From the NCBI RefSeq assembly GCF_963668085.2, contig NZ_OY764057.2:1335980-1359979 (forward strand): a DNA stretch of 24,000 nucleotides, written 5' to 3'. A program made the translations under genes and the position numbers. The stretch comes from an uncultured Ilyobacter sp. GTDB taxonomy: Bacteria; Fusobacteriota; Fusobacteriia; Fusobacteriales; Fusobacteriaceae. This document shows positions 2,681 to 24,000 of this stretch, piece by piece; within the stretch, counting starts at the first letter, position 1, and each line of letters begins with the position of its first letter. Below the pieces are notes generated by a model that was not told the DNA's origin, ran no database searches, and saw nothing but the letters and a program-made list of their open reading frames with translations.

Positions 2681-5600
2681 CTATACCGCATCTTCCTCGG
2701 CTTTTTCAGATTTTTTAAATCTTTTCTTAAGTTTTTCACTAGCTCCCATAATTATTATATAAAATACCGGAACAAAGAATATTAATAGTAGTGTTGCAGA
2801 AAGCATCCCTCCTGCAGTGGCAGTACCTAGCGACCGACGACTTTCCGCTCCTGCTCCTGTTGCATAGGTCAGAGGTAAAACTCCCAATATAAATGTAAAT
2901 GCTGTCATCAATATAGGTCTGAATCTCAGACGAGAAGCCTCAAGTGCTGATTCAACAAGAGACATCCCTGAGTTGCTCTCCTCTTTGGCAAATTCAGATA
3001 TCAAAATAGCAGTCTTACAGGTCATGGCTATGAGAAGCACGATACCTAGCTGAGTATAGACGTTGACATCCATCTGTCTTATTGACAAAGCTGTAACTGT
3101 CCCCAAAACAGCTAGGGGAACAGTTAAAACAATTGTAAGTGGAAGAGTCCAGCTTTCATACTGGGCACATAATACAAGATATACAAACAACACTGCCAGT
3201 CCAAATATAAATATTATATTCCCTTCAGCGGCCTTTTCCTGATAGGACATCCCTGTCCATTCAAACCCCATGGAAGAAGGAAGATTTTCATTAGCAAGCT
3301 CCTCCATTATCAGCATTGCTTCTCCGGAACTTGTAAAACCAGCACCTTGTCCGCTTATACTTGCTGAAGGATACATATTATACCTCGTGATAATCTGAGG
3401 ACCTACAGCCTCTTCTACAGAGAGAACTGTACCCATGGGTACCATTTCGCCTTTCTCATTACGCACTTCTAGTTTTTTTATATCTTCAGCTGTTGCTCTG
3501 TAGTCAGCACTGGCTTGGGCTCTTACCTGATAATTACGTCCAAACTGATTAAAGTCATTGACATATGTAGAACCTAAATTTCCCTGAAGAGTGTTAAATA
3601 TATTAGACAGAGGTATTTTCAATGTTTTAGCCTGTGTTCTGTCTAAAACCGTTAATAGCTGGGGTACATTAGCTCTGTAAGTACTGTATACCCTTGTGAG
3701 CTTAGACTGTGAATTTGCATTCATAACTATATTCTGTACTGCCTTTTCCAAGTTTGCAGATCCAGCACTGGCTCTGTCCTGTACTTGCATCTGAAAACCT
3801 CCGGCATTTCCAAGACCTCTTATTGGTGGAGGAGTAAATACCAGAATTCTGGCTTCTTGAATATCACTTATACTTTTAGATACTTCACCCATAATTTTAT
3901 CCATACTAAGCCCGGATTTTTTACGCTCTTCCCAAGGTTTAAAGACTAACCAAAAGGCGGCATTGTTTGAAGCTGCAGCTCCATCCATAATAGAATATCC
4001 TGAGATAGCTATTCTATTTTCAAGGCCTTCTACTTTTTCTAGACGTTTGGTAATCTTATCTACAACTTCCTTGGTTCTAGTAAGAGAGGCGGCATCAGGA
4101 AGTTGTACATTTATCATGGCATAACCCAAATCTTCCTTTGGAACGAATCCCTTTGGAAGAGAATCATATTTCCAGAATACTCCTAAAGTCATGATTATAA
4201 AAGCCAGTATCATAACTGCCCCACGCCTTACAACAGAGGTGAGAATTCTTGCATACCCCTTCTGAGTTCTACCAAAAGCTGAATTAAATGCCCTTGTAAA
4301 TATATTGTGTTTTTTATTCGGGTTCTTTGGTCTCAAGAAGATCGCACATAAGGCTGGACTCAAAGTAAGTGCATTTATAGAACTAAATATAGTTGCTGTT
4401 GCTATGGTAAGTGCAAACTGTCGGTAAAGCTGCCCTGTAATACCGCCTAGAAATGCCGTAGGAATAAAAACAGACAGCAAAACCAAAGTTGTAGCTATTA
4501 CCGGTCCGGTTATCTCTTCCATCGCCTTTATAGCAGCATCACGAGGTGCAAGATTATTCTCATCTATATTTCTTACAGCGTTCTCAACCACTATTATGGC
4601 ATCATCTACGACTATACCTATAGCCAATACCAGACCGAATAGTGATAGTGTATTTATACTTACCCCCAAGACAGCCATTACTGCAAAGGTACCGATTAGC
4701 GATACTGGAATTGCCACTGTTGGTATCAGAGTAGCCCTCCAGTCTTCAAGAAATAAAAGAATAGTCAAAAAAACTAATATAACAGATATAAAAAGTGTTT
4801 CGATTACTTCATCTATTGAAGACTTTACAAAAGTCGTTGTATCAAAGGGAATGCTAGCCTTCATCCCATCAGGAAATTTTTGGCTTAATTCATCAATTTT
4901 TCCTTTTACCCCCTCTGCTACCTTTAGGGCATTAGCTTCTGGCTGAAGGAATACAGCTATGGCAGCTGAAGGCTGACCATTGAGTTGGTTAGATATGTTG
5001 TAACTCTGAGACCCAAGCTCCACCTTTGCTATGTCTCTGACTCTTATCATTCCCCCGTCATTTGTTGTTTTAACTATGATATTTTCAAATTCTTCTGTAC
5101 TGTTTAATTTACCCCTCATATTTACAGTAAACTGGAAGTTTTGATCCACAGGCGATGGTTCCTGTCCAACCTGACCTGCTGCCACCTGGATATTTTGTTC
5201 TCTGACAGCATTTACTACATCTGTACTTGTGAGGCCTCTTGCCTTAAGCTTATCAGGATATAACCATATCCTCATACTATAGTCACCGGCACCAAAGACT
5301 GTTATACCACCTACACCCTTTATTCTAGAAAGTTCATCTTTTATATTAAGTGTCGCATAGTTACTCAGAAAAAGGTTGTCATGCATTGGATTTTCTGAGG
5401 TAAGACTGGCAAATAGTAGTATATTTGAAGACCTTTTTTCTGTGGTTACTCCCTGACGCTGAACCTCTTCAGGTAAGGAAGATAAGGCTTGAGATACACG
5501 GTTTTGGACTAGGTTTTGTGCCACGTCCATATCTGTCCCAACCTCAAAGGTAACACTCAGTGAATACTCTCCACTATTAGAACTGTTACTAGACATGTAA

Positions 5601-5830
5601 ATCATATTCTCTACTCCGTTGACCTCTCCCTCTATAGGCTGGGCCACAGTGAGTGATATAGTCTCTGCATTTGCTCCTGGATAGACTGCCGATACTTGTA
5701 CTGTTGGGGGAGCTATTTCTGGATACTGGGCTACTGGAAGAGATTTCATAGTCACCAGTCCTGCAATGACTATTACAATTGATATAACTCCGGCAAAAAT
5801 GGGACGTTTTATAAAAAATTTACTAAACAT
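2681..5830 (-). CDS. RND multidrug efflux permease, AcrB/MexB (HAE1) family
   Basis: 1049-aa ORF with the typical N-terminus MFSKFFIKRPIFA. It has two large periplasmic loops and about 12 TM segments. It lies last in an operon behind OMF and MFP genes. Confidence 0.92.
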   Translation of the reverse strand: MFSKFFIKRPIFAGVISIVIVIAGLVTMKSLPVAQYPEIAPPTVQVSAVYPGANAETISLTVAQPIEGEVNGVENMIYMSSNSSNSGEYSLSVTFEVGTDMDVAQNLVQNRVSQALSSLPEEVQRQGVTTEKRSSNILLFASLTSENPMHDNLFLSNYATLNIKDELSRIKGVGGITVFGAGDYSMRIWLYPDKLKARGLTSTDVVNAVREQNIQVAAGQVGQEPSPVDQNFQFTVNMRGKLNSTEEFENIIVKTTNDGGMIRVRDIAKVELGSQSYNISNQLNGQPSAAIAVFLQPEANALKVAEGVKGKIDELSQKFPDGMKASIPFDTTTFVKSSIDEVIETLFISVILVFLTILLFLEDWRATLIPTVAIPVSLIGTFAVMAVLGVSINTLSLFGLVLAIGIVVDDAIIVVENAVRNIDENNLAPRDAAIKAMEEITGPVIATTLVLLSVFIPTAFLGGITGQLYRQFALTIATATIFSSINALTLSPALCAIFLRPKNPNKKHNIFTRAFNSAFGRTQKGYARILTSVVRRGAVMILAFIIMTLGVFWKYDSLPKGFVPKEDLGYAMINVQLPDAASLTRTKEVVDKITKRLEKVEGLENRIAISGYSIMDGAAASNNAAFWLVFKPWEERKKSGLSMDKIMGEVSKSISDIQEARILVFTPPPIRGLGNAGGFQMQVQDRASAGSANLEKAVQNIVMNANSQSKLTRVYSTYRANVPQLLTVLDRTQAKTLKIPLSNIFNTLQGNLGSTYVNDFNQFGRNYQVRAQASADYRATAEDIKKLEVRNEKGEMVPMGTVLSVEEAVGPQIITRYNMYPSASISGQGAGFTSSGEAMLIMEELANENLPSSMGFEWTGMSYQEKAAEGNIIFIFGLAVLFVYLVLCAQYESWTLPLTIVLTVPLAVLGTVTALSIRQMDVNVYTQLGIVLLIAMTCKTAILISEFAKEESNSGMSLVESALEASRLRFRPILMTAFTFILGVLPLTYATGAGAESRRSLGTATAGGMLSATLLLIFFVPVFYIIIMGASEKLKKRFKKSEKAEEDAV

Positions 5831-5851
5831 TATTTATTCCTCCTAAATAGA

Positions 5852-6997
5852 TTAATTTTCCGTTTTAGGACTTTTATTTTCTGAGTTTTCTTCATCTATA
5901 GGAGAAACTTCACGTCCTGGATAAGCCATCTGGATACCTTTTACAATTATGTTATCACTTGGCTCTATTCCTGATTTTATAACCCTCATTCCATTTATGA
6001 GATCTCCGATCTCAACATGTTTATACTCGACAATATTTTCATTATTTACAGCTAATAAATAATACCCCTGTTGATCCCTTCCAACTATTTGATCTGGTAC
6101 AAGAAGGGCATTTTCTATGGTTTTTTCAGATATTTTAATGTTGGCAAACATTCCAGGTAGAATATCTTTTTTACTGTTTTCAAAGACAGCCCTTACCTGT
6201 ATATTTCCAGTTCCTGGATTTACCCTGTTATTTATATAGTCTATTTTTCCCTTATGAGAAAAATCCTTATTTAAAAGTCCTAAATATATTTCAGTGGAAT
6301 CGGCCCGACTGTTTAATAAGTCAGATTCAATAATATCTCTTTCATTTACGTTAAAATATACATAGATAGAGTCATCTTTTATAATAGTTGCAAGGAGGGT
6401 ATTTTCTCCGGCTCCTATTAGGTTTCCTGCGTCTACAAGATTTCTATCTATACGTCCGCTTATAGGTGCATGTATTGTTGTATAAGACAAATTAAGCTCT
6501 GCTGTTTCTACTGCAGCTTTTGCAGATTCTATTGCAGCTTTTGCCACCTCTACGTCAGCTCTTGCCTGAATAACACTTACTTCACTTACAGCACGCTCTT
6601 TATAAGCCATTTCCATTCTCTGAAAAGTTGCTTCGGCAGCCTTGAGTTTTGATATTTCTATTGCAAGTTGTGCCTTGGCTTCACCAAGTTTTGCATTATA
6701 AGGACGCTGATCTATAACAAATAGCAGGTCACCTTTTTTTACAAAAGAACCTGGCTTAAACATTACCTTTTCTAAATACCCCTCTACTCGGGGTCTTATC
6801 TCTACAGAATCCATAGCCTCAGTAAGTCCCGTAAATTCCAAATAATTTGTAACATTTTTCTGTACAGGCTTGCTCACTGTCACCTTAGATGGAGGTGGCG
6901 GAGAGTAGGTATTTTCCTTCTCGCATCCTGTAAAAAGTGTTCCCATAATGAGAATTGTAAAAATCAGGGTGTAAATTTTTCTATTTTTAGACTCCAT
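5852..6997 (-). CDS. Efflux RND periplasmic adaptor (membrane fusion protein, AcrA/HlyD family), lipoprotein
   Basis: 381-aa ORF with lipobox LFTGC, a coiled-coil hairpin region (AKAQLAIEISKLKAAEA...VEVAKAAIESAKAAVETAELNLSYT) and beta-barrel motifs (TIHAPISGRI). Confidence 0.88.
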   Translation of the reverse strand: MESKNRKIYTLIFTILIMGTLFTGCEKENTYSPPPPSKVTVSKPVQKNVTNYLEFTGLTEAMDSVEIRPRVEGYLEKVMFKPGSFVKKGDLLFVIDQRPYNAKLGEAKAQLAIEISKLKAAEATFQRMEMAYKERAVSEVSVIQARADVEVAKAAIESAKAAVETAELNLSYTTIHAPISGRIDRNLVDAGNLIGAGENTLLATIIKDDSIYVYFNVNERDIIESDLLNSRADSTEIYLGLLNKDFSHKGKIDYINNRVNPGTGNIQVRAVFENSKKDILPGMFANIKISEKTIENALLVPDQIVGRDQQGYYLLAVNNENIVEYKHVEIGDLINGMRVIKSGIEPSDNIIVKGIQMAYPGREVSPIDEENSENKSPKTEN

Positions 6998-7037
6998 ATA
7001 AATGCTCCTTTTAAATTATATTTTTAATTTTTAGAAT

Positions 7038-8495
7038 TTATTTCTGAGTTTTTACGATAGAATCAGGGTCCCATCCTCCACCTAGAGCTGCATAAAGACG
7101 TACAAAGTTTTCTGCACTGTCTCCTCTAGCTTGGGCTAATCTGTCTTCAGAAGTAAACTGACTTAGTTGAGAATTTAAAACATTTTCAAAATCTACAAGC
7201 CCCTGTTTATAGAGGTTAAGAGAAAGCTCCACTGTTTTTTTAGATGCTTTCACTGTCTTTTCCAAATGTTTTAGACGCATACTGTCTTCTGTATATGCTG
7301 TCATTGTATTCTCCGCTTCATTTAATGCATTAAGTACTGTGCTCTCATACTGAATAGCCTTTTGACGTACAATTGCATCCTGCACATCGATTTGATTTAA
7401 TATACTTCCCCCGGAAAATATATTCCATCTCAAAGAAGGCCCTATTGAAAAATAATTTCCTCCTGAACTAAATAAATTTCCACTTGATACTGATTGATAT
7501 CCAAATGATCCAGAAAGAGAAAACTGCGGATAAAGGTCTGCCTTGGCAATACCTACACGAGCTGTTTCTACTGCTAATTGACGCTCTGCACTTCTGATGT
7601 CAGGACGTTGTCTCAAAATGTCTGCAGGAACCCCTATAGCCGCATCTGCAGGAGGCACAGGTATAGCTTTTTTTTCAGACATCAACTGATTCAGTTCTCC
7701 AGGATTTCGTCCTAGTAAAACAGCCATGGTGTTTATAGCTTCTGACAATTGTATTCTAAGAGGTGGCACAGTAGCTTCTGAACTGGCAAGAGCCTGTTCT
7801 GCCTGGGCTACTTCTAAGGCTGTAGCCAACCCATACTTAAATCTTGCTTCTGTTATCCTCAAAACTTCTCTCTGAAGTTCAATATTTGAATTTGAAGCCT
7901 CTAGCCTAGCCTGATAAGTTCTTATTTTTATATAGTTAAGGGCTATTCTGGAATTAATTGATATTATTACGTCATTTTTATCTTCCTGGGCCACTTCATA
8001 ATTGGCTTTGGCAGCCTCTATACTCCGCCTCACACGACCAAAAAGGTCTATCTCCCAGCCAGCTTCAAGCCCAAGTCCTTTATAAGTATTTGTGGCACCA
8101 GTATAACCTGCATTTTCACTGGTCTTTTGTCTCAGAAGATCCCCTTCTACAGACAAGCTTGGGACTCTGTTACCAGTTACTACACCTAGTCTAGAACGGT
8201 ATTCATCTACACGTGCCAAGGCCTCTTTTAAGTCTAGGTTACTACCTGAGGCTTCTTTTATGAGTTCATCTAACATGGGATCATCAAATAACTTCCACCA
8301 CTGTTCAGACAACCTATTTTCATTATTAAAATTTACTTTCTTTTCTCCGTTCCATTTTTCCGGTACTTTTACCTTTGGCGAGACATAGTCAGGTCCCACA
8401 GCAGTACATCCAGTGAAAACCAGTACAGCTGACAAGGTCAGGGCTGCAGGTATTTTTTTTAATCTCAGCTTTTCTTTTCCCCTCATTCTTTTCAA
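7038..8495 (-). CDS. Efflux outer-membrane factor lipoprotein, NodT/OprM/TolC family
   Basis: 485-aa ORF with lipobox VFTGC followed by TAVGPDYVSP, typical of the NodT family. C-terminus is LYAALGGGW. The track start is TTG at 8495. ATG at 8486 (MRGKEKL...), preceded by GGAG, is the more likely start. Confidence 0.88.
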   Translation of the reverse strand: MKRMRGKEKLRLKKIPAALTLSAVLVFTGCTAVGPDYVSPKVKVPEKWNGEKKVNFNNENRLSEQWWKLFDDPMLDELIKEASGSNLDLKEALARVDEYRSRLGVVTGNRVPSLSVEGDLLRQKTSENAGYTGATNTYKGLGLEAGWEIDLFGRVRRSIEAAKANYEVAQEDKNDVIISINSRIALNYIKIRTYQARLEASNSNIELQREVLRITEARFKYGLATALEVAQAEQALASSEATVPPLRIQLSEAINTMAVLLGRNPGELNQLMSEKKAIPVPPADAAIGVPADILRQRPDIRSAERQLAVETARVGIAKADLYPQFSLSGSFGYQSVSSGNLFSSGGNYFSIGPSLRWNIFSGGSILNQIDVQDAIVRQKAIQYESTVLNALNEAENTMTAYTEDSMRLKHLEKTVKASKKTVELSLNLYKQGLVDFENVLNSQLSQFTSEDRLAQARGDSAENFVRLYAALGGGWDPDSIVKTQK

Positions 8496-8543
8496 CTCCG
8501 ATATTTTAATTTTTTATCTATTCAAATTTTTTGCAAGCTAAAT

Positions 8544-8562
8544 TTAGTTAATTTTTAACTAA
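8544..8562. promoter_or_regulatory. Palindrome TTAGTTAA-ttt-TTAACTAA between the marR stop and the OMF start; candidate MarR operator
   Basis: Perfect 8-bp arms read directly from the sequence. It shares the half-site TTAGTT/AACTAA with the palindrome at 9027..9041. Confidence 0.35.
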
Positions 8563-8582
8563 CTATTTTTATGAAAATATCT

Positions 8583-9002
8583 TTAACTAAACAGTTTTCT
8601 AAATATTTTTATAAAATTACTTATTTCCTCATCTGTAAGTGAATCTAATCTTTCTTTTGCAAACTTTTCTGCAGATAGCTCCTTTAACCTCACTATATTT
8701 TTACCTTTTTCAGTAAGTTTTATGTAAAAAACCCTTTTATCTAGTTCACTTTGCTCTCTGTAAACACATTCAAACTTCGTAAGTTTATTGATTATTTCAG
8801 TTACAGAAGGCTTGGTTATGTTGAGAATCTCTGAAAGTTCACTTGATGTCATTTCAGGGTTTTTATCTATCAAACTTAGATAATGAAATTGTTTTATCTG
8901 CATATCATAAGATCCTAGTTCCTTAGAAGTTTCAATACTAAACTTAGAAAGTTCATTATAAAATTTTATTATCAGACTTGTTAACTCTTCTTTTTTATAC
9001 AT
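8583..9002 (-). CDS. MarR-family transcriptional regulator (first gene of the efflux operon)
   Basis: 139-aa ORF with a winged-HTH core (LSLIDKNPEMTSSELSEILNITKPSVTEIINKLTKFECVYREQSELDKRVFYIKLTEKG). It sits directly upstream of the OMF-MFP-RND genes. Confidence 0.75.
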   Translation of the reverse strand: MYKKEELTSLIIKFYNELSKFSIETSKELGSYDMQIKQFHYLSLIDKNPEMTSSELSEILNITKPSVTEIINKLTKFECVYREQSELDKRVFYIKLTEKGKNIVRLKELSAEKFAKERLDSLTDEEISNFIKIFRKLFS

Positions 9003-10620: not shown

Positions 10621-11121
10621 CTATTTATTTTTCATTTTAACTTTCATTAACAATTCTCCGACTTTTACATCTCCAGAAGCTACAACTTTTAACTCCTCTA
10701 CTTCGTCCATTGAATTTATTACTACAGGTGTAATTACAGACTTAGCATTCGCCTTTATAAATTCTAAGTCATATTTTACAAGCTCATCTCCTGGTTTTAC
10801 TTTGGTACCTGGTTTTCCAATTCTTTTGAAACCCTCCCCGCCAAGTTTTACAGTGTCTATACCAAAATGCACTATGAGTTCTAGACCTTTTTCTGTCTCA
10901 AAACTAACAGCATGATTAGTGTCAAAGATATCCACTTCACCAGCAACTGGGGAATAAACCGATCCTTCAACAGGATCTATGGCACATCCGTCACCTATCA
11001 TCTTTTGTGCAAAGGCTTCATCAGGAACCATTGAAATGTCTAAGACCTTTCCCTCTAAAGGAGAGTAGATCTCTAGCCACTCTTCCTCTTTTTTCTTTTT
11101 TAAAAAATCAAATAAGCCCAT
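10621..11121 (-). CDS. crr: PTS glucose-family EIIA component (Crr-like)
   Basis: 166-aa ORF that aligns by eye along its whole length to E. coli Crr. Active-site histidine motifs are present (FDTNHAV... and VHFGIDTVKLGGEGF). A 9-nt gap with GGAGGT separates it from the EIICB gene. Confidence 0.9.
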   Translation of the reverse strand: MGLFDFLKKKKEEEWLEIYSPLEGKVLDISMVPDEAFAQKMIGDGCAIDPVEGSVYSPVAGEVDIFDTNHAVSFETEKGLELIVHFGIDTVKLGGEGFKRIGKPGTKVKPGDELVKYDLEFIKANAKSVITPVVINSMDEVEELKVVASGDVKVGELLMKVKMKNK

Positions 11122-11367
11122 ATTAGTTCTCCTTTCTTTATTTTAAAATTTTTATTAAAAATTGTTGCCTACAAACTATATTCTGTACAATATAGAGTAT
11201 TCATTCAAACAAAATAAAAATAATTTTCTCAAAATTTGATCTAGTTTTTTGAGCCATATTTTTTTGTTCCTGTTTTAAAGTTTGTTTTATATTTGCTTTA
11301 TATGTTTCATTTCAATCTTTATTATCCTTCTTTCGTTATATTAACATAATATCTCCCAAAAGATTTT

Positions 11368-12651
11368 TTGTCAATATTTTTTTCAAAAAAAATGAGCCTT
11401 TTTTCAAGTTATAATTTATTTAAAAATAATAATACTATGTTTCGGAGTTTGACTTTTTTTAATAAAAATAGTAGTATCATATTAAGTTTTATAAAGGAAA
11501 GGGGTATAAATTTGGGATCTAAAAAGGGACTTTCTAAAGAAAGATATGAGATCATAGAGCCTTTTTTAAAAAAGGAAAAAAAGCTCAAAGATATAGAAAA
11601 TGAAAAAAATATATCCTATGCTACTCTGAAAAGATGGGTAAAAGCATACAAGGAGAACGGTATAGAAGGGCTCATAAAAAAAGAAAGAAAAGATAAAAAC
11701 CAGTATAGAAGCCTAGATGAAAAAACCTATGAATTTATAAAAGAATCTTACAAAGAAAATCCAGATATAAAAATAAGCAGTCTTTATGAAAAATGCTGTA
11801 AATTTATAAAAACTTTTAGCGATAAAAGCATAAGTTATCACACTGTTTATAGAGCTGTAAATAATCTAGACGATTTTGTAAAAGATCACGCCTCTATAAA
11901 CATAGAAAAAATTAAAAAGAAACACCAGGCCTATAGAATTGTCCAAACGGCCTTAGATATAAAAATAAGAGATTTTCGGCAAAACTCCATGAAGAAACCC
12001 TATCTGTATCTGGTATACGATGTCTCAACTAATGATATTTTAAATTATTACCTAAGTTTCTCCAAACTAGACCTTAAAAAATCAACTGCTCTTTTAAGGG
12101 ACACAATTATAAAAAATTATAAGTCTGTTGAAAATTTCTTTATAAAACCTCAAAATCTTCTAATAGACTCCTTTGATATAAAAAACAAGAGAAAGGTAGA
12201 GCAGATAAAAGAAACCTTGGATATAAAAATAGAAAATTATTATGAACCGAATAAGGAGATGGAAAGATTTATCAATTTTCTAAAGTCAGATTTGACAAAC
12301 CTATTGAAAGAAACACATTTCAGCAACTCTTTGCTAGAGCTAGACAGGATTCTCTACTCCTATATTTTTATGAATAATATTAAAAATTTAAATGATGAGA
12401 ACCCATTTTCTTCTTCGGGGATTTTAAAAGACATAGATAAGTTGGATATTTTGTTAGGAAGTGCCAAGAGAAAAGTTCAAGAATATGGAATACGATTCAG
12501 AAATGGCATCTATCGAAGTCCAGATTTAAAAAAACATACGGGAAACATTTTAGAGATAAAATATAATGTTAACGACCCGAAAGAAATAAAAGTTTATTTT
12601 AAGGGAAATTTTTTATGTATGGCATATCTTTCTGCAAACGAAAGTTTTTAG
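11368..12651 (+). CDS. Degenerate MuA/TnsB/TniA-like transposase homologue (HTH + rve-like core + Mu-transposase C-terminal-like domain); likely catalytically dead or domesticated
   Basis: N-terminal HTH pattern typical of this family: SKERYEIIEPFL...ISYATLKRWVKAYKENGIEGL. Core-like segments are KPYLYLVYDVSTNDILNYYLS and PQNLLIDSFD...EPNKEMERFINFL. The C-terminal segment RKVQEYGIRFRNGIYRSPDL...LEIKYNVNDPKEIKVYF resembles the Mu transposase C-terminal domain. The true start is probably TTG 11512, because the first 48 codons of the track ORF are low-complexity and lie upstream of the predicted promoter. Confidence 0.6.
   Translation: MSIFFSKKMSLFSSYNLFKNNNTMFRSLTFFNKNSSIILSFIKERGINLGSKKGLSKERYEIIEPFLKKEKKLKDIENEKNISYATLKRWVKAYKENGIEGLIKKERKDKNQYRSLDEKTYEFIKESYKENPDIKISSLYEKCCKFIKTFSDKSISYHTVYRAVNNLDDFVKDHASINIEKIKKKHQAYRIVQTALDIKIRDFRQNSMKKPYLYLVYDVSTNDILNYYLSFSKLDLKKSTALLRDTIIKNYKSVENFFIKPQNLLIDSFDIKNKRKVEQIKETLDIKIENYYEPNKEMERFINFLKSDLTNLLKETHFSNSLLELDRILYSYIFMNNIKNLNDENPFSSSGILKDIDKLDILLGSAKRKVQEYGIRFRNGIYRSPDLKKHTGNILEIKYNVNDPKEIKVYFKGNFLCMAYLSANESF
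11449..11477 (+). promoter_or_regulatory. Candidate promoter for the transposase-like gene
   Basis: TTGACT (11449-11454), a 17-nt spacer, then TAGTAT (11472-11477). It is followed by AAAGGAAAGGGG and an in-frame TTG at 11512. Confidence 0.35.
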
Positions 12652-12658
12652 TTACAGC

Positions 12659-12687
12659 AAAAAAGGGTCGCATAAGCGACCCTTTTT
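12659..12687. terminator. Bidirectional rho-independent terminator
   Basis: AAAAAA-GGGTCGC-ATAA-GCGACCC-TTTTT, a perfect stem flanked by A and T runs, sits between the convergent transposase-like gene and the EIIA paralogue. Confidence 0.85.
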
Positions 12688-12699
12688 CTATTTACTCTC

Positions 12700-13209
12700 T
12701 CAAGCATTATTTTTTTTCATTTTTATCTTCATTAGAAGGTCTCCAGCCTTTATCTCTCCTCTAGCTAAAACCTCTATACTCTCCACATCATCCATAGACG
12801 TTATTATTATAGGGCTTATGGCTGACTTGGCATTCTCCCTTATAAAATCTAGGTCATACTTTACAAGCTCATCTCCTATGTGAACAAGACTCCCAGGTTC
12901 TCCCAACCTTTCAAATCCAGCACCACCCAGGTCCACCGTATCTATCCCTAGATGCACTATGATTTCTAAGCCGTTTTCCATCTCAAAGGTCACTGCATGA
13001 TTGGTATCAAAAATATCAACCTCTCCCTCTACAGGAGCAAAGACAGAACCTTCTGAAGGATCTATGGCACATCCATCCCCTATCATCTTTTTTGAGAAAG
13101 CCTCGTCAGGAACAGCCTCTAGACCCATCACTTTTCCACTTATAGGAGAGTATACCTTTACATACTCACAATTTTTCCTGTTTTTTTTTAATAATTCAAA
13201 TATTCCCAT
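12700..13209 (-). CDS. PTS glucose-family EIIA component, second (orphan) paralogue
   Basis: 169-aa ORF, colinear with the EIIA at 10621..11121 and sharing most residues by eye. It has the same His motifs (FDTNHAV, VHLGIDTVDLGGAGF). No EIIB or EIIC gene is adjacent. Confidence 0.88.
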   Translation of the reverse strand: MGIFELLKKNRKNCEYVKVYSPISGKVMGLEAVPDEAFSKKMIGDGCAIDPSEGSVFAPVEGEVDIFDTNHAVTFEMENGLEIIVHLGIDTVDLGGAGFERLGEPGSLVHIGDELVKYDLDFIRENAKSAISPIIITSMDDVESIEVLARGEIKAGDLLMKIKMKKNNA

Positions 13210-16994: not shown

Positions 16995-17345
16995 GAATTC
17001 GTTACTTTTCTCTTGAAAGAAAAGTAACCAAAAGTTCAAGCCTGTGAAAAATCAGCTAAATAACCTTCGGAAATCCAAGTAAAAACTCAAAACTCGCTAC
17101 GCTCAGACAGTCGATTTTTTCTAAGAGATTTCACTGCAGTTATTCTTAACGCTGATTTTGTCAATAGCCAGAAGAATTTCAAAAGATTTAAAGAAAACCT
17201 CATCGCAAGATTTTAAATTCCCGTATCTAAAAGTTTTCGTCTTAACTCTGTGAAACTCTCACTTTTTCTCTGTGCCCTCTGTGGTCAATAAAGGTTAGTT
17301 CATTCGTGTTAATTTTTTTGTCTTTTATCGGTCTTCATTCGTGAC
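16995..17345. repeat. Non-coding structured or repeat-like element (nested inverted repeats plus short direct repeats)
   Basis: Perfect hairpin GTTACTTTTCT-cttgaa-AGAAAAGTAAC (17001-17028). Imperfect long inverted repeat with arms about 17045-17075 and 17127-17162 (AAAAATCAGC...GGAAATC // GATTTC...GCTGATTTT). CTCTGTG occurs three times (17246, 17268, 17277). TTCATTCGTG occurs twice (17299, 17334). No ORF is present. Confidence 0.45.
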
Positions 17346-17393
17346 AAAATCTTTTGACTCTAATATTCTTGTAAATTCAGTAATTTATTCAGA

Positions 17394-17427
17394 CGTAAAA
17401 AAAGAAAGACCCCCTAAAGAATCTTTC
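17394..17427 (-). terminator. Rho-independent terminator after the EamA gene
   Basis: The minus strand reads AGAAAGA-ttctttaggggg-TCTTTCT followed by TTTTTT. Confidence 0.6.
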
Positions 17428-17475
17428 TAAAATTTAAATATTTTTATTCAGACTTTATATTTTAATCTAAATTTT

Positions 17476-18384
17476 TTAATTTTCACATGGTTTAGGAGAA
17501 CTACTCTTTTCATTAACACAAACTATCAAAACACTTGTCAGAATCAGAGATCCTCCTAGGAAAAAATTAATTGTAATTTCTTCATTTAGCAAAGCCCATC
17601 CCAAAAGCGAACCTACAACAGGTTGAAAAAAGAAAAACAGAGAACCTATCCCAGCATCCATCAGTTCCATTCCTTTATTCCAAAGGAAAAAGGCTCCTGC
17701 CGTAGAAATAACTCCTAGGTATAGAATTCCTAAAATAATCAAGATACTCTTATAATAAAAATCATTAAATTGCATTTCCCATAGCATTAACGGTGTAGTA
17801 AATATAAAGGCAACTAAAATTGCATAAGTGGTAATTGTCAAAGAGGAGAGTCGTCTAGATGCGATCTTTACCAAAATAGACAACAAGGCCCAGGTAATTG
17901 CAGCCAACACCAGTATCATACTACCTAAAAAATAACTTCCAAAATTACTTTCCCAGCCTACAATAATAATTACACCTACTACGGCTAGAAAAAGAGAAAT
18001 TATTTTTCTCAAAGTTAATGCTTCTTTTAATATCAATCTTGCAAAAACAACTATGAATACAGGTGTAGCAGAAGTAATAAGAGCTCCTGTATGGGCATCT
18101 GACAGTTTTGTGCCTATAAACTGACATGAGATTGATATAAAATAACCTACAAAACCTATACATCCGATCAGTATCCAATCTTTTTTTACTATATTTTCTT
18201 TTTTCTTTTTTGAAGTTTTCAACACTGCAAACAAAACAACAAATGCAATTGCATAACGAAGCCACACAAGTGTAAATGGCGGTATATAGTTTAAAACATA
18301 CTTACTTGCCACATACATTCCGCCCCAAATAGATGCTGCCGTGGATAGACATATTGCTCCTAAAAAATTCTTCTTAATAATCAT
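17476..18384 (-). CDS. EamA/DMT-superfamily transporter (10 TM, two EamA repeats); substrate unknown
   Basis: 302-aa hydrophobic ORF with a duplicated five-TM architecture and typical EamA sequence character. Strong RBS GGAGG lies 6 nt upstream of the ATG. Confidence 0.8.
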   Translation of the reverse strand: MIIKKNFLGAICLSTAASIWGGMYVASKYVLNYIPPFTLVWLRYAIAFVVLFAVLKTSKKKKENIVKKDWILIGCIGFVGYFISISCQFIGTKLSDAHTGALITSATPVFIVVFARLILKEALTLRKIISLFLAVVGVIIIVGWESNFGSYFLGSMILVLAAITWALLSILVKIASRRLSSLTITTYAILVAFIFTTPLMLWEMQFNDFYYKSILIILGILYLGVISTAGAFFLWNKGMELMDAGIGSLFFFFQPVVGSLLGWALLNEEITINFFLGGSLILTSVLIVCVNEKSSSPKPCEN

Positions 18385-18434
18385 AAACTACCTCCATCTT
18401 TTATAATAAATAGTTAAATAAAACTTATTTTTTA

Positions 18435-18469
18435 AGATGGGGTATAACCTGGCTATTTATACCTCATCT
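18435..18469 (-). promoter_or_regulatory. Hairpin in the EamA 5' leader, with an alternative pairing partner at the EamA Shine-Dalgarno
   Basis: Minus-strand RNA forms AGATGAGGTATAA (18469-18457) / TTATACCCCATCT (18447-18435), 13 bp with one A-C mismatch. The 3' arm CCCCATCT is also complementary to AGATGG(A)GG (18399-18391), which contains the EamA SD. Confidence 0.35.
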
Positions 18470-18523
18470 TTAGGCATAGACAGCAGGCTGATCATTCTCA
18501 AATATGTCAAAATATAATCTCAT
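18470..18523 (-). CDS. Candidate 17-codon leader peptide MRLYFDIFENDQPAVYA
   Basis: ATG at 18523-18521 lies 7 nt after a near-perfect SD AAGGAGG (18537-18531). The stop TAA (18472-18470) directly abuts the 5' arm of the hairpin. Confidence 0.3.
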   Translation of the reverse strand: MRLYFDIFENDQPAVYA

Positions 18524-18542
18524 ATTTATTCCTCCTTGTAAT

Positions 18543-18556
18543 GAACTAGTTAGATT
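18543..18556. promoter_or_regulatory. Degenerate copy of the ACTA-NN-TAGT operator motif upstream of the leader ORF and EamA
   Basis: GAACTAGTTAGATT has a core ACTAGTTAG identical to 9 nt of the reverse complement of pan site B, with one core mismatch (TAGA instead of TAGT). A half-site ATACTAAC lies at 18568-18575. Confidence 0.3.
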
Positions 18557-18599
18557 GATTATAGTTTATACTAACAAATATAATTATACAATTCAAGAT

Positions 18600-20051
18600 T
18601 TAAAAAAATATTTCCAGTACTTCTTCTTCTGGTTTTTTACCTATAAGTGAACCTATGGTAAAGGCCATAAGAGAAATAAATATAACAGGTACTATCTGGT
18701 GCATACCCATAGGCTTTATCTTACTGATGGTGAAGTAAAAATAAGATCCCACTCCTGTGAGCATAGAAGCTATGGCTCCTGTTGCATTTGCTTTTTTCCA
18801 ATAGAGTCCCAGTACTATAGGGCATAAAAAAGCTGCTTCAAGTCCTCCAAAGGCAAAAAGGTTTATCCATACCAAAAGTTTCGGTGGATTCATAGAAAGC
18901 ATGAAAACTATTATACCTACTGTAAGAGATGTGAAAAGTGTAAGTTTTTTTATTTTTTTATCGTCTGCATCTTTGTTTATATAATGTATGTAAAGATCCT
19001 TTACAATTGCTGCTGAGGATAGTATTAGCATAGAATCCACTGTGGACATTGTCGCTGCCAAAGGACCTCCTATAAATACTCCTGCAAGTATAGGGGGCAT
19101 ATTTCTCAGGGCAAGTGTAGGTATTATTTTGTCTCCCACATCTATTCCAGGAGCTACTGCTGCTCCCATGACTCCTATAAGGTGCATTCCTATCATCAAA
19201 AACCCTACCACAAAGGTACCAACTATCATAGCTCGATGCATAGATTTTGAATCTCTGAATCCCATACATCTAATTGTCGTCTGTGGTAATCCAAGTACCG
19301 CCACACCTACTAGCATCCAAAATGATAAAATAAATGGTTTTGCTATGGCTCCCCCAGAAGTAGGGGTCAGGAGATCTGGATTTGTTTTCATCAGTCCCTG
19401 CATTATATTTTCCATGCCTCCGCCATTTTTCAATATTGCAAAGAACAAAAAGGTAGTGGCCACCATCATCATTATTCCCTGAATTGCGTCAGTTAGAGCT
19501 ACAGCCCTAAAACCTCCCAAAGTAGTATATATTATAACCACTACACCAAAAAGCAAAAGGCCGGTGTGGTATGAAAGGCCGGTTACAGTTTCAAAAAGTC
19601 TGGCACCTCCGATAAACTGAGCTATTATAGAGGCTGCGAAAAATACAAGTACGGCTATAGAGGATAGTATAACCACTGTATCACTCTTGTACCTAGCCCT
19701 GAGATAATCTGTTATAGTTACTGCCCCTATTTTCCTAGATATTATTGCAAATTTCTTACCTAGTATTCCAAGTGTTAGAAAGGCTGTGGGAGTCTGTATA
19801 CAAGCTAACAATACCCATCCCAAACCGAGTTTATACGCTACTCCAGGTCCGCCTACAAAAGAACTGGCACTGGCATAAGTTGCAATAAGGGTCATAGCGA
19901 GGACAAAGCCTCCCATATTTCTGCTTCCAATAAAATACTCTTCTATAAAATTGACTTCTCCCGAGTGTTTTATTTCGTTTGTTTTATATGCTATAAACAG
20001 CATTACTGCAAGATAAATTACTAAAGGTATCAGTATCATTATGTTATTCAT
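18600..20051 (-). CDS. panF: Sodium/pantothenate symporter (SSS family)
   Basis: 483-aa ORF, the same length as E. coli PanF and colinear with it by eye (EEYFIGSRNMGGFVLAMTLIATYASASSFVGGPGVAYKLGLGWVLLA...GILGKKFAI...). It is preceded by a yhdT-like gene, as in E. coli. Confidence 0.88.
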   Translation of the reverse strand: MNNIMILIPLVIYLAVMLFIAYKTNEIKHSGEVNFIEEYFIGSRNMGGFVLAMTLIATYASASSFVGGPGVAYKLGLGWVLLACIQTPTAFLTLGILGKKFAIISRKIGAVTITDYLRARYKSDTVVILSSIAVLVFFAASIIAQFIGGARLFETVTGLSYHTGLLLFGVVVIIYTTLGGFRAVALTDAIQGIMMMVATTFLFFAILKNGGGMENIMQGLMKTNPDLLTPTSGGAIAKPFILSFWMLVGVAVLGLPQTTIRCMGFRDSKSMHRAMIVGTFVVGFLMIGMHLIGVMGAAVAPGIDVGDKIIPTLALRNMPPILAGVFIGGPLAATMSTVDSMLILSSAAIVKDLYIHYINKDADDKKIKKLTLFTSLTVGIIVFMLSMNPPKLLVWINLFAFGGLEAAFLCPIVLGLYWKKANATGAIASMLTGVGSYFYFTISKIKPMGMHQIVPVIFISLMAFTIGSLIGKKPEEEVLEIFF

Positions 20052-20059
20052 TATTCCTC

Positions 20060-20302
20060 CTAGTCAAAGTCAACTTCTTTAAAAAATATCTTAATTGCAA
20101 AGTATACAAGGGTGCATATTACAAAAAATCCTACTATACACGAATAAAAAAACCATTCTGGAAGTCCCATTATAAACCTGTATTCCATAGGGTTTTTATC
20201 CCCCATACCATAGGCAAAAAGGTACCACCACGCAAAATAAACAAAATAAAGAATTACTGTTACCGTAGCTTCTTTTCTTATCTGTTTGTTCCTCTCTCTC
20301 AT
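20060..20302 (-). CDS. yhdT: YhdT-family small membrane protein (DUF997), PanF-associated
   Basis: It resembles E. coli YhdT (RKEA...YF..W...AY...GLPEWFFYSCI compared with HKEA...YL..W...AY...GFPRWFEMACI). An 8-nt gap separates it from panF. The likely start is ATG 20302, 4 nt after GGGAGG. The track start at 20317 is TTG. Confidence 0.78.
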   Translation of the reverse strand: MRERNKQIRKEATVTVILYFVYFAWWYLFAYGMGDKNPMEYRFIMGLPEWFFYSCIVGFFVICTLVYFAIKIFFKEVDFD

Positions 20303-20378
20303 CTGTCCTCCCTGCAAATATTATCTGGCTTTACGAATAAAAATATCGATAAATTAATTTTGGCGAATAAAAATTGAG

Positions 20379-20819
20379 CTATCCTTTTCCGAGTTTTTTA
20401 AGAAGCTCTATCATTATCATCTGTTCCGCTTCTGTGAGCACACCAAAAGCTTTTTTTAAGTTTTCCAAATGCTTATCAAAAACTTCCTCCATAAGTGCAG
20501 TACCTTTTGGGCTTATTTTAATAATAAAAACTCTTCTGTCTTTATCGTCTCTTTTTTTTATTATAAGGCCCTCTTTTTCTAGATTATTTATTATCACGGT
20601 CATAGTACCACCGCTAGAAAAAGTCTTTTCTATGACCTCTTTTATTGTAAACTCCCCTCTATGATATAAAAGCTCTAGTACTGAAAACTGTGCCTCTGTT
20701 ACTCCCTGTTTTTTCATATCAGGGTATATCCTTCTGTTTACCGAGGCATAACACCTTGAAAAAGTCACTAAAAGTTTAAGATTTCTCCATTCGTCTCTAT
20801 CATATTCTTTATTCATCAT
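20379..20819 (-). CDS. MarR-family transcriptional regulator heading the yhdT-panF operon
   Basis: Winged-HTH core QFSVLELLYHRGEFTIKEVIEKTFSSGGTMTVIINNLEKEGLIIKKRDDKDRRVFIIKISPKG. The track start (TTG 20855) coincides with a -35 hexamer. ATG 20819 (MMNKEYD...) is the likely start. Confidence 0.75.
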   Translation of the reverse strand: MMNKEYDRDEWRNLKLLVTFSRCYASVNRRIYPDMKKQGVTEAQFSVLELLYHRGEFTIKEVIEKTFSSGGTMTVIINNLEKEGLIIKKRDDKDRRVFIIKISPKGTALMEEVFDKHLENLKKAFGVLTEAEQMIMIELLKKLGKG

Positions 20820-20826
20820 AGAAAAA

Positions 20827-20855
20827 ATTATACTACTAATTAGTTTATTTTTCAA
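20827..20855 (-). promoter_or_regulatory. Near-consensus promoter with an embedded ACTAATTAGT palindrome; the predicted TSS falls on the marR ATG (leaderless)
   Basis: The minus strand reads TTGAAA (20855-20850), a 17-nt spacer, TATAAT (20832-20827), then 7 nt (tttttct), then ATG (20819). The spacer is aat+AAACTAATTAGTAG, with its palindrome core at 20835-20844. No SD lies upstream of the ATG. Confidence 0.55.
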
Positions 20856-20975
20856 TAATAAAATAGCTTATTTTTACATATAATTTGCTATATAGTCGTT
20901 ATAAATTATTTTGACGATAAAAATTAAAAAAACCTTGTATTTTATCCTAGTCTAACACTTTATTTTGTCCAATAT

Positions 20976-21000
20976 AAAAAGAGGCCTAGGCCTCTTTCTA
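20976..21000 (-). terminator. Rho-independent terminator after panD
   Basis: The minus strand reads AGAGGCC-TA-GGCCTCT followed by TTTTTATATT. It starts 14 nt after the panD stop. Confidence 0.7.
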
Positions 21001-21013
21001 ATTTTCTATAAAC

Positions 21014-21397
21014 TTATACTAATTTACCGTGCTTTTCATAACTAGATATTTTTTCGACTTCATTGTGTTCTCCCATAAGAACTACTTTAGGCTGATGAGT
21101 ATGTGCCTCCTTCTCATCTACCATACAGTAGGCCATTATGATTATTTTATCATTTTTTTGAACCATTCTCGCCGCTGCACCATTTAAGCATACGATTCCT
21201 TTCTCATCTTCTGCAGCTATTACGTAAGTTTCAAACCTAGCTCCGTTGTTAATATTCACAATATGAACAAGCTCATATTCTCTTATACCTGCTGCTTCCA
21301 TTATTGTCTTGTCAAGTGTGATACTACCTACATAATCAAGTTCTGCCTGAGTTACTGTAGCTCTGTGAATTTTCCCTTTTAAAAGTTGGATTTGCAT
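21014..21397 (-). CDS. panD: Aspartate 1-decarboxylase (pyruvoyl-dependent)
   Basis: [25 protein letters not shown] contains the Gly-Ser self-cleavage site. The likely start is ATG 21397, 7 nt after AGGAG. The track start is GTG 21403, which overlaps the panC stop. Confidence 0.92.
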
Positions 21398-21399
21398 TT

Positions 21400-22245
21400 T
21401 CACTCTCCTATTATCATATTATCTATAAGTCTTGTCTTCCCTATAAAAACCGCCGTTGCCGCAAGTGCCCTTTCTTTTACTACATCTATTTTTTCTAAGG
21501 TGTCAGGATCTACTATTTCAAAATAGTCAATTTTTGCAATATCCATTGTAGATATTTTTCTAGCAGCCTCTTTCTTGAGTTCCTCTACATCACTAGTTCC
21601 CTGATACACCATCTCTTTAATTATATTTAGAGCCTCTATAATAATAAGCGCCTTTCTTCTTTCCTCTTCAGAAAGTTTTGCGTTACGGGAACTCATTGCA
21701 AGCCCGTCTTCCTCTCTAACAATTGAACACCCTATGATTTCTACGGGAATATTTAGGTCCTTGGTAAATCTTTTTATTATAGCTAACTGCTGAAAATCCT
21801 TTTCTCCGAAGTAAGCTCTGTCTGGTGTAACTATTAAAAATAGCTTTGTAACTACAGTACATACACCTCTAAAATGACCTGGCCTTGTGGCCCCACATAG
21901 TTCTTTATCAAGACCCTCTATATCCACTAGAGTAGCAAATCCATCAGGATACATCTCTGCCGCAGTAGGAGCAAATATAATATCCCCTCCTGCATCTGCA
22001 ACCAGTGCTTTGTCCCCTTGAAGATTGCTCGGATATGTTTCCAAGTCATTTTCGTTGTCAAACTGCTTGGGGTTGACGAAGACACTCACAACAACCCTGT
22101 CATTTTCTGACGACGCCTTTTCTATGAGACTCTTATGTCCAGCGTGAAGATAACCCATGGTAGGTACAAATCCCACAGAAAGTCCGTTACTTTTCCATTC
22201 ATTAACTTTTTCCTTGATTTCACTGATGCTTCTTAGAACTTCCAT
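21400..22245 (-). CDS. panC: Pantoate--beta-alanine ligase (pantothenate synthetase)
   Basis: 281-aa ORF with the [13 protein letters not shown] (HxGH) motif and a length typical of PanC. Confidence 0.92.
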
Positions 22246-22254
22246 TCTGTCCTC

Positions 22255-23082
22255 CTAGTAAAGCTTTTCAAGAACTTCATCTTTTATTCCGAAAGTGTGT
22301 TCCTTTGCAGGAAAGGTTCCATCTCTCACTTCTTTAACATAAGCTTCTAGACCTTCCCTCATTACTTTCCCTACATCTGCAAAGGTCTTTACAAATTTTG
22401 GTTTAAAATCCCCATACATGTTTAGCATATCCTGGATTACAAGAACCTGTCCGTCACAGACATTTCCGGAGCCTATTCCTATAGTAGGAACAGAGACACT
22501 TTCACTTACAATCTTGGCTAGTTTTTCCGGCACACATTCTAAGACTATTGCAAAGACACCTGCTTCTTCAAGTGCTTTTGCATCTTTTATCATCTGTTTG
22601 GCTTCTTCTTCACTCTTGCCTTGTACCTTGAATCCTCCAAACACATTTACTGACTGAGGAGTAAGCCCTAGGTGACCCATAACAGGAATCTGTGCTTTTA
22701 CTATAGCCTTTATTTTCTCCACCATATCAATTCCACCCTCTAGCTTCACAGCATGGGCCCCTGTTTCCTTTATCAATCTACCTGCATTTGCCACTGCTTC
22801 TGGTGTGGTATTGTGGTACGACATAAAGGGCATATCCAAAATAACTAGGGTGTTTTCCACTCCTCTCATCACTGCCTTCCCGTGATGAATGATATCTTCT
22901 AAGGTAACAGAAAGAGTCGAATCATATCCTAGACACACCATTCCTAGGGAATCTCCCACAAGAATGGCTTCCACTTCTGTTTCATCTATGATCCTTGCTG
23001 TCGTGTAATCATATCCGGTAACTACCGAAAGCTTCTTCCCCTTTTCCTTTGAATTTCTGAAGCTTACTACTGTGTTTTTCAT
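22255..23082 (-). CDS. panB: 3-methyl-2-oxobutanoate hydroxymethyltransferase (ketopantoate hydroxymethyltransferase)
   Basis: 275-aa ORF with [50 protein letters not shown], typical of PanB. Its ATG overlaps the upstream gene's stop (ATGA), and RBS GAGGAGG is present. Confidence 0.92.
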
Positions 23083-23906
23083 TCTTCCTCCTCTAAGAGT
23101 TTTTTTATTTCGCTGTAATCTCTGTCGCTGTCTTTCAATATTTCTAAAAGCTCCAGGGATGCTGCCTTATAAAGTTTTTTTTCAACTCCACGCTGCACTT
23201 CAAGGTGCTTCAAAATTGTGTCAATGTCTCCTCTTTCAAGAGGTCCTGTTATAGACCTAGAGGTGCCTTTTTCTTTTATATTTTCTATGGTCTTTTCAAT
23301 TATAGGAAATATTATCTCTTTTCCAGTTTCAAGACCTGATTTCTCTATATTTGCTATGGCTCTGTGAATTACAGATATTAAAAGATTTGATGCAAAGACC
23401 CCTGCAAGATGATAGTTCACCTTTTTATCCGGTGAAATACTGAACTTATTATTGGGAACTTTATCTAAAAAATCTTCGAACTCCTCTAAATCCCCCTCTA
23501 TAGTTAGGGGCATTTTATCCATTTTTTCTATCTCTGTGTCTCCTCCTGCAAAAGTCATCATAGGATGAATTGACATGACTTTGCAATTCCTATCTCTAGC
23601 ACCTGAAAAAACTTGGCTAGAAAGTGCTCCACTGGTATGAACAACCAGCTTATCTTTTATTTTATGGGTTAAAAGGTTTTCCCAGACAGAATTTATGACT
23701 CCGTCAGGTACAGTTACAAATATAATGTCACTTTGGTCAATTATTTCTCTATAATTTTGAAAAACAACACTTTCAGTTTCAGTGGCTGCCCTTTCAGCTA
23801 GAGATTTTACGGTGTCAAAATAGCCGGCAACTTTTAGATTTTTATTTACAAAATATCTCCCAAGAGATAAACCTATTTTTCCAGCCCCTATAAAAGAGAT
23901 TTTCAC
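23079..23906 (-). CDS. panG: Rossmann-fold oxidoreductase, probable PanG-type (DUF2520-like) ketopantoate reductase
   Basis: N-terminal dinucleotide-binding motif [16 protein letters not shown]. It is the first gene of the pan operon and is translationally coupled to it. No panE or ilvC-like gene is in the cluster. GTG start at 23906 lies 6 nt after GGGAGG. Confidence 0.55.
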
Positions 23907-23938
23907 TCTATTCCTCCCAACATTTTTACTGATATATA

Positions 23939-23952
23939 ATACTAGCTAGTAT
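23939..23952. promoter_or_regulatory. Operator-like perfect palindrome ATACTAGCTAGTAT (pan site A) in the pan operon 5' UTR
   Basis: A 14-bp perfect palindrome. It sits within an 18/19-identical direct repeat ATAATACTA-N-CTAGTATA shared with site B, 35 bp away. Confidence 0.5.
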
Positions 23953-23967
23953 AATATCCATATACAA

Positions 23968-23997
23968 ATGATAATACTAACTAGTATATTGTGTCAA
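23968..23997 (-). promoter_or_regulatory. Candidate pan operon promoter with operator palindrome ATACTAACTAGTAT (pan site B, 23974-23987) filling the spacer
   Basis: The minus strand reads TTGACA (23997-23992), the spacer caat+ATACTAGTTAGTAT (18 nt), then TATCAT (23973-23968). The palindrome abuts the -10 exactly as in the marR promoter at 20827-20855. Confidence 0.5.
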
Positions 23998-24000
23998 CAA

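Follow-up and report, generated by a model that had tools for sequence, protein, structure and literature searches.

A MarR-family regulator of the MhqR lineage and its predicted operators at the pantothenate genes of an uncultured Ilyobacter sp.

Described vitamin regulons, MhqR and the Ilyobacter locus

Most B vitamins have known transcriptional control, and one review of their regulons names BirA, BioQ, NrtR, NiaR and PdxR together with riboswitches for thiamine pyrophosphate, flavin mononucleotide (FMN), tetrahydrofolate and B12 (PMC6593275). For pantothenate (vitamin B5) and coenzyme A (CoA), the reviews consulted describe control at the enzyme level only, at pantothenate kinase (PanK), one paper giving competitive enzyme inhibition as the sole control for CoA (PMC10393543), and the pan RNA motif is unexplained. 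Here, we describe a 24,000-nucleotide stretch of DNA from an uncultured Ilyobacter sp. (contig NZ_OY764057.2, positions 1,335,980 to 1,359,979; hereafter the window), which carries a MarR-family regulator gene (marR) in a marR-yhdT-panF unit for pantothenate uptake, next to a panG-panB-panC-panD unit for pantothenate synthesis. Palindromic sequences, predicted to be operators of this regulator, overlap the promoters of both units.

BirA, BioQ, NiaR, NrtR and PdxR are local repressors with operators before the synthesis and transporter genes of one vitamin (PMC6593275; PMC2330245). The window resembles these systems, since its operators precede both B5 biosynthesis (panG promoter) and uptake (marR-yhdT-panF promoter), and in relatives they stand before panB, panG and yhdT. 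In contrast, the five regulators belong to unrelated protein families, their effectors are known and none of them serves pantothenate. The first-pass annotation of this DNA, made from the letters alone, knew of no dedicated transcription factor for pantothenate genes. None was found in the literature searched either, although absence there is no proof, and the operator words of the window are not mentioned in that literature. The proposed mechanism is that of a standard local MarR repressor, and it is the target pathway that is new.

Weinberg et al. (2010, PMC2864571) described the pan RNA motif, a stem carrying two bulged A residues that precedes panB, panC and panD operons, mostly as tandem copies, and they raised the possibility that a dimeric protein binds it. 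The motif occurs in other phyla, including that of B. subtilis, whereas the window operator is a DNA palindrome. The motif had no Rfam match in the whole window at the gathering score, nor in 20300-24000 at E ≤ 10. A riboswitch or other RNA element was rejected, as Rfam gave nothing at the gathering score and relaxed scans of 18300-18700 and 20300-24000 returned only chance-level matches to small RNAs (sRNAs) and small nucleolar RNAs (snoRNAs).

The best sequence and structure match of the regulator is MhqR (YkvE) of S. aureus and B. subtilis (PDB 9QDR/9SMZ), whose F39 and H111 are conserved in it. MhqR likewise controls its own gene, whose promoter carries a palindromic operator. Methylbenzoquinone binds S. 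aureus MhqR between α2, α5 and α1' at residues F11, F39, E43 and H111, and it disturbs the α3-α4 loop, by which the protein is released from DNA (bioRxiv 10.1101/2025.10.30.685541). The two systems differ in their operators (TACTAnnTAGTA in the window versus TATCTCGAAnTCGAGATA in Bacilli) and in their targets, which are dioxygenase and azoreductase-type genes for MhqR and pantothenate synthesis and uptake genes in the window. They differ moreover in the FPxH motif, E43 and α3-α4 loop residues, all diverged in the clade of pan-linked regulators described below. Genes for quinone or electrophile detoxification are not among the marR-adjacent, operator-bearing genes of the 24-kb window (panGBCD, yhdT-panF).

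Other members of the MarR family bear on which signals are conceivable. CouR and FerR bind CoA thioesters, while AdcR (zinc) and FabT (acyl-acyl carrier protein) use co-repressors; the MarR fold can recognise CoA or phosphopantetheine, and ligand-promoted DNA binding exists in the family. These four proteins differ from the window MarR in that they have no particular sequence relationship to it.

Operators, promoters and the regulator

The first-pass annotation had placed copies of one palindromic motif in three transcription units, panG-panB-panC-panD, marR-yhdT-panF and a leader open reading frame (ORF) followed by an EamA transporter gene. All four of its sequences were found to be exact: ATACTAGCTAGTAT at 23939-23952, ATACTAACTAGTAT at 23974-23987, CTACTAATTAGTTT at 20833-20846 and GAACTAGTTAGATT at 18543-18556. 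The 24 kb contain three exact copies of the core ACTANNTAGT, all at the pan or marR promoter sites; the mean number in shuffled sequence was 0.56, and three copies were reached in 2 of 100 shuffles. An 18-bp matrix (consensus TACTACTAATTAGTAGTA) was then derived from 15 distinct sites beside orthologous regulators in other genomes, the window being left out to avoid circularity. Scanned over the window, it returned three matches of at least 15 bits, versus a chance expectation of about 0.05 per 24 kb, and the next-best match reached 8.3 bits. The three are the promoter sites O1 (the top match), O2 and O3 of Table 1. The fourth site, upstream of EamA (18541-18558), scored 3.5 bits, which is background, as chance alone would yield about six matches of 5 bits or more per 24 kb. 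Three sites are real signals and the fourth is not. The claim that all three units carry the motif is retained for the panG and marR promoters (17.4-18.8 bits) and lost for the EamA unit.

The predicted binding site is an 18-bp palindrome with consensus TAnTACTAnnTAGTAnTA that overlaps the marR and pan promoters; MarR operators typically measure 16-20 bp and overlap the promoter of the regulator's own or a neighbouring operon. The panG and marR promoters are the two best sigma-70-like matches in 17300-24000, and one operator fills the spacer of each. The remaining operator lies over the likely transcription start of panG (Table 1). Spacer and start are classic repressor positions. The marR mRNA is probably leaderless, because 7 nt separate the -10 element from the ATG and a Shine-Dalgarno sequence is lacking. 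Across loci, the gap between the -10 element and the marR ATG is conserved at 6-9 nt.

The regulator has 146 aa and is identical, by exact look-up, to WP_013387588.1 (ADO82921.1) of Ilyobacter polytropus, which public records call only 'MarR family', a generic name, or 'SarZ', an automatic one. It passes the family models PF01047 (47.1 bits, cut-off 24.6) and PF12802 (46.6 bits, cut-off 27). No NCBIfam equivalog was found at its cut-off, with HpaR, OhrR, MprA, FabT and AdcR all scoring far below. The AlphaFold2 monomer model (mean predicted local distance difference test score 86.9) has helices at residues 8-29, 42-54, 59-66, 70-82, 104-125 and 130-143 and strands at 86-90 and 98-102. It shows the six-helix MarR fold with a β-wing, and all of the 50 top Foldseek matches were MarR proteins. 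S. aureus MhqR, the closest characterised relative, was the best match in the PDB by profile search (E = 1e-33), by BLASTP (32% identity, 1e-27) and by Foldseek (rank 1). Judged by sequence and modelled structure, the regulator is a member of the MhqR (quinone-sensor) lineage, a point that the first-pass annotation had missed. A thiol-sensor role for the conserved Cys23, by analogy with OhrR, was set aside: this Cys is non-discriminating, because it is common in a Clostridial sister clade of the regulator (26 of 39 sequences) and absent from S. aureus MhqR.

Related loci and the candidate signal

Related loci were collected through a protein search, which gave about 50 close homologues (54-97% identity), and through scans of genome and metagenome collections, which gave 160 loci. 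The genome collection consists of species representatives. Exact-protein look-ups added two more loci (L161 and L162), 162 in all.

Where the regulator is at least 55% identical, marR lies directly upstream of pan genes in 19 of 20 related loci, a count that overstates independence as the loci are non-independent and several are near-identical; independent support comes from three gene arrangements, spread over at least four genera. The sole exception (L082) is a 1.5-kb contig, and one pan-linked locus (L087) was wrongly labelled by the 55% threshold. The first arrangement, marR-yhdT-panF, is found in Psychrilyobacter and Propionigenium-like loci (L001, L002, L081, L083-L086, L161 and L162), the second, marR-panB-panC-panD, in Fusobacteriaceae, and the third, marR-panG-panB-panC-panD, in uncultured Ilyobacter. 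Among about 140 homologues at 52% identity or less, no pan gene was found within 6-8 kb. In a neighbour-joining tree the pan-linked regulators form a single clade, which is small and covers Ilyobacter, Propionigenium, Psychrilyobacter, Hypnocyclicus and other Fusobacteriaceae.

In the pan-linked loci the palindrome is present at the marR promoter, and extra copies of 17-25 bits stand directly before panB, panG or yhdT. In three loci (L003, L005 and L089) the marR-promoter copy has decayed and the copy before the pan genes is retained, which, on the sequences compared, is the pattern expected from selection on pan control. Comparative genomics, with three arrangements across Fusobacteriota, gives strong support to the reading in which an autoregulated MarR repressor links panG-panB-panC-panD with marR-yhdT-panF.

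The sister clade of the pan-linked regulators is sizeable and belongs to Clostridia and other Bacillota (L006-L017, L019 and L094-L129; 42-52% identity). Its operator, typically TATTACTAATTAGTAATA (19-25 bits), is the same 18-bp operator as in the window. The leaderless promoter is shared as well, and in nearly all loci 10 nt separate the end of the operator from the ATG. A second operator copy lies about 35 nt past the marR stop codon. Unlike in the pan clade, the genes downstream of the sister-clade regulators are not pan genes; they encode pirin/quercetinase, nitroreductase, FMN-reductase/flavodoxin-like quinone reductases and BFD-type ferredoxins. These neighbours form a typical quinone/electrophile-detoxification set and point to what is probably a quinone/electrophile regulon, distinct from that of the Bacilli MhqR box; neither the clade nor its operator was found described in the literature searched. 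The MhqR box itself (inverted repeat TATCTCGAA / TCGAGATA) is not the window operator and was seen only in the more distant Bacilli homologues L018, L020, L023 and L127, which carry a TATCTCGAATTCGAGATA-like box at the same position.

The operator accompanies marR across two phyla, in about 55 loci and at a fixed 10 nt from the ATG, whatever genes follow. Since it tracks the protein lineage and not the target genes, the palindrome is almost certainly bound by MarR. The Fusobacterial branch, as these comparisons depict it, has retained the DNA specificity and gained pantothenate genes as targets. That the palindromes are instead AT-rich promoter sequence, chance or sites of another factor, with MarR a mere neighbour, is highly improbable. 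The genome is indeed AT-rich (36% G+C), three exact cores do turn up in a few shuffles, and the fourth site proposed at first was at chance level. However, the number of matches of at least 15 bits is far above expectation, and the motif keeps a constant distance from the marR ATG in those loci and gives way to the MhqR box at the very point where the protein lineage switches. Moreover, its extra copies always stand before adjacent target genes.

From the positions and significance of the sites and from the joint inheritance of the regulator with its operator and the pan genes, all established in silico, we infer that MarR binds these operators and probably represses both pan units through them. 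MarR would bind as a dimer to the 18-bp palindrome. The operator in the marR spacer would allow repression of marR-yhdT-panF, that is, of the regulator itself and of the pantothenate symporter, and the two operators at the panG-panB-panC-panD promoter, in the spacer and over the start, would repress de novo synthesis too. A signal that weakens DNA binding would then turn on uptake and synthesis together. The effector could be a pantothenate/CoA-pathway metabolite held in the usual MarR pocket.

The pocket was compared in an alignment of 15 pan-clade and 39 Clostridial sequences. The recognition helix is common to both clades (GG[T/N]MTV.I.NL). The residues of the window protein equivalent to MhqR F11, F39, E43 and H111 are L17, F45, E49 and H117. 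The Clostridial clade keeps the MhqR-type residues E43 (39/39), F108 (39/39) and P109 (35/39), whereas at the same positions the pan clade has E or N (8 and 7 sequences), F or L (8 and 7) and P in none of the 15. Specific to the pan clade are the invariant N28, E42, K60, T66 and F67 and the near-invariant T72 (14/15). E42 lies at the start of α2, one turn before F45, while F67 and T72 lie in or beside the allosteric loop. Divergence of the pocket and the α3-α4 loop with an unchanged recognition helix fits an altered effector in the pan clade, without naming one.

The MhqR lineage and the operator shared with the quinone-linked Clostridial clade mean that the signal is not necessarily pantothenate. 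The same protein and sites could respond to an MhqR-type signal, quinones or thiol-reactive electrophiles releasing the repressor so that the pan genes are induced to rebuild the pool of CoA, a low-molecular-weight thiol. The nearest characterised relative senses quinones, and the Clostridial sister clade, with its identical operator and promoter layout, adjoins the detoxification genes listed above and is clearly quinone/electrophile-linked. Neither clade varies at the equivalents of F39 and H111, the window protein retains that of E43, and ligands of MarR proteins mostly release them from DNA, so that pantothenate or CoA as an end-product would need the rare role of a co-repressor. These points, and the non-independence of the related loci, weigh against a B5-pathway effector and the regulon built around it. 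Co-repression occurs in the MarR family and is uncommon (AdcR, FabT); by analogy with the family, release by a ligand as the default would suit a precursor or a stress signal as inducer.

On the other side, the pan-clade regulators never stand beside detoxification genes, and a nitroreductase/ABM/HxlR cluster in L161 is 8 kb away and without operator. The pan clade shows relaxed conservation of the FPxH motif and of E43, in place of which other polar residues (N28, E42 and K60) have become invariant and the allosteric loop has changed (F67 and T72), and no link between quinone stress and pan genes was found in the literature searched. Induction by quinones or electrophiles is therefore rated unlikely. 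Given repression by MarR, a B5-pathway effector is modestly preferred over the inherited signal, because the pocket and the α3-α4 loop have diverged from those of quinone sensors while the recognition helix is unchanged. It is a plausible though tentative proposal that the regulator is the first dedicated B5 transcription factor, an offshoot of MhqR that kept the operator and the leaderless promoter, whose pocket was switched to a pantothenate/CoA-pathway metabolite and whose operator moved to the pan genes.

If this proposal is true, a repressor dedicated to the pan genes, with its clearly defined operator, would close the B5 gap for one phylum, and membership of the regulon could serve as a tool to assign B5 transporters and missing pathway genes in Fusobacteria. 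The pan clade and its Clostridial sister would form a tractable pair in which a MarR protein changed its signal and targets and kept its DNA site, a clean natural case of regulon rewiring through an effector switch with unchanged DNA specificity. The practical reach is limited because the pan clade is small.

Several further features were seen around marR. In the window, the marR-yhdT spacer (20318-20378) is without operator and contains the direct repeat TTTTTATTCG twice; in the closest relatives (L081, L161 and L162) this spacer has one or two strong operators. In the Psychrilyobacter group, a set of closely related loci, the marR coding region itself contains an operator-like sequence (15-17 bits), in the ILISIT codons about 310 bp downstream of the promoter operator (L001 1194-1211, L083 3691, L085 1021, L086 4432 and L002 8281). 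This sequence may serve as a further binding site or may simply reflect codon usage. In L161 (8962-9339) and L162 (4864-5238) there is a conserved gene for a MORN-like repeat protein of 124-125 aa with no Pfam match. Together with a D-2-hydroxyacid dehydrogenase gene, it lies divergently upstream of marR, and no extra operator was found there. The dehydrogenase might conceivably act on ketopantoate.

EamA, gene content and neighbouring features

The coordinates of the features are collected in Table 1. PanB, PanC, PanD, DUF997/YhdT, MarR and EamA all passed their Pfam cut-offs. The PanG call is that of a candidate, based on the DUF2520 and Rossmann-like domains and on the operon position; DUF2520 is a domain that we take to be associated with PanG. 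An orthologue of this gene is present in the marR-panG-panBCD loci L003 and L005. The hairpin behind panD indicates that the pan operon and marR-yhdT-panF are separate transcription units.

Table 1. Predicted genes, promoters, operators and RNA features of the region 17476-23997 of the window
Feature	Position	Strand	Remarks
Putative sigma-70-type promoter of panG-panB-panC-panD	23968-23997	-	TTGACA-18 nt-TATCAT; 11/12 consensus positions
Operator O2, TAATACTAACTAGTATAT	23972-23989		panG -35/-10 spacer; overlaps best regional promoter match; 17.5 bits
Operator O1, TAATACTAGCTAGTATAA	23937-23954		about 14-31 nt downstream of panG -10, over likely transcription start; 18.8 bits
panG-like gene, candidate ketopantoate reductase	23079-23906	-	PF10728 and PF10727; DUF2520 and a Rossmann-like domain
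panB, ketopantoate hydroxymethyltransferase	22255-23082	-	PF02548, 389 bits
panC, pantoate-beta-alanine ligase	21400-22245	-	PF02569, 358 bits
panD, aspartate 1-decarboxylase	21014-21403	-	PF02261, 173 bits
GC-rich palindromic hairpin after panD, AAAGAGGCCTAGGCCTCTTT	20978-20997		terminator-like match; likely terminator
marR promoter	20827-20855	-	TTGAAA-17 nt-TATAAT; 11/12 consensus positions
Operator O3, TACTACTAATTAGTTTAT	20831-20848		marR -35/-10 spacer, overlaps -10; 17.4 bits; position kept in about 55 homologous loci
marR, MarR-family regulator	20379-20819	-	Pfam MarR
yhdT (DUF997), small membrane protein	20060-20302	-	PF06196; usual partner of panF
panF, sodium/pantothenate symporter	18600-20051	-	TIGR02119 equivalog, 699 bits (cut-off 328)
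Leader region upstream of EamA	18385-18523	-	17-codon ORF (MRLYFDIFENDQPAVYA, 18470-18523), strong Shine-Dalgarno, then alternative hairpins
EamA/DMT transporter	17476-18384	-	PF00892

The first-pass annotation had also counted the leader ORF and EamA as a third unit of the regulon. On such a reading EamA would carry a B5-related compound into or out of the cell. The EamA gene follows panF immediately and on the same strand, a one-mismatch core (ACTAGTTAGA) is found 160 nt upstream of it, and no terminator was detected between panF and the EamA leader, so that read-through into EamA from the MarR-controlled promoter is possible. However, the site is at background in the matrix scan and an EamA homologue is found in none of the 162 related loci. 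L161 and L162, which are syntenic with the window here, have a Peptidase_S58 (DmpA/BapA-like) gene in place of EamA between panF and a convergent rhodanese/SelU gene. EamA moreover has a leader peptide and an anti-Shine-Dalgarno switch of its own. On the matrix score, the lack of conservation and this separate leader control, EamA was rejected as a member of the regulon, and a three-unit regulon is considered quite improbable.

After the leader ORF, three segments follow (AAGAUGAGGUAUAA, UUAUACCCCAUCUU and AAGAUGGAGG), of which the middle one can pair with the first or with the Shine-Dalgarno sequence of EamA. The RNA fold of the leader has z = -3.4; CCCCAUCUU pairs with AAGAUGGAGG, and one hairpin sequesters the EamA Shine-Dalgarno sequence. 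The arrangement resembles translational attenuation by a leader peptide, here of a DMT exporter, separate from the MarR system. A relaxed Rfam scan of 18300-18700 gave no family match, with chance-level sRNA/snoRNA hits only.

The Peptidase_S58 genes (L161 11755-12768 and L162 7605-8621) lie in the same operon behind panF, in loci whose regulators are 70-75% identical to that of the window. The enzyme could release beta-alanine, as a pantothenate precursor, from beta-alanyl peptides.

Elsewhere in the window, a second and unrelated-looking MarR gene (8583-9002, minus strand) heads an outer-membrane-factor/HlyD/AcrB efflux operon of the resistance-nodulation-division type (2681-9002). A weak operator-like match of 8.3 bits (8554-8571) between this gene and the efflux genes is probably due to chance. 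A Mu-type transposase gene (11368-12651, plus strand) is located between paralogous phosphotransferase system EIIA genes (10621-11121 and 12700-13209; window region 10621-13209), which suggests an insertion or duplication event.

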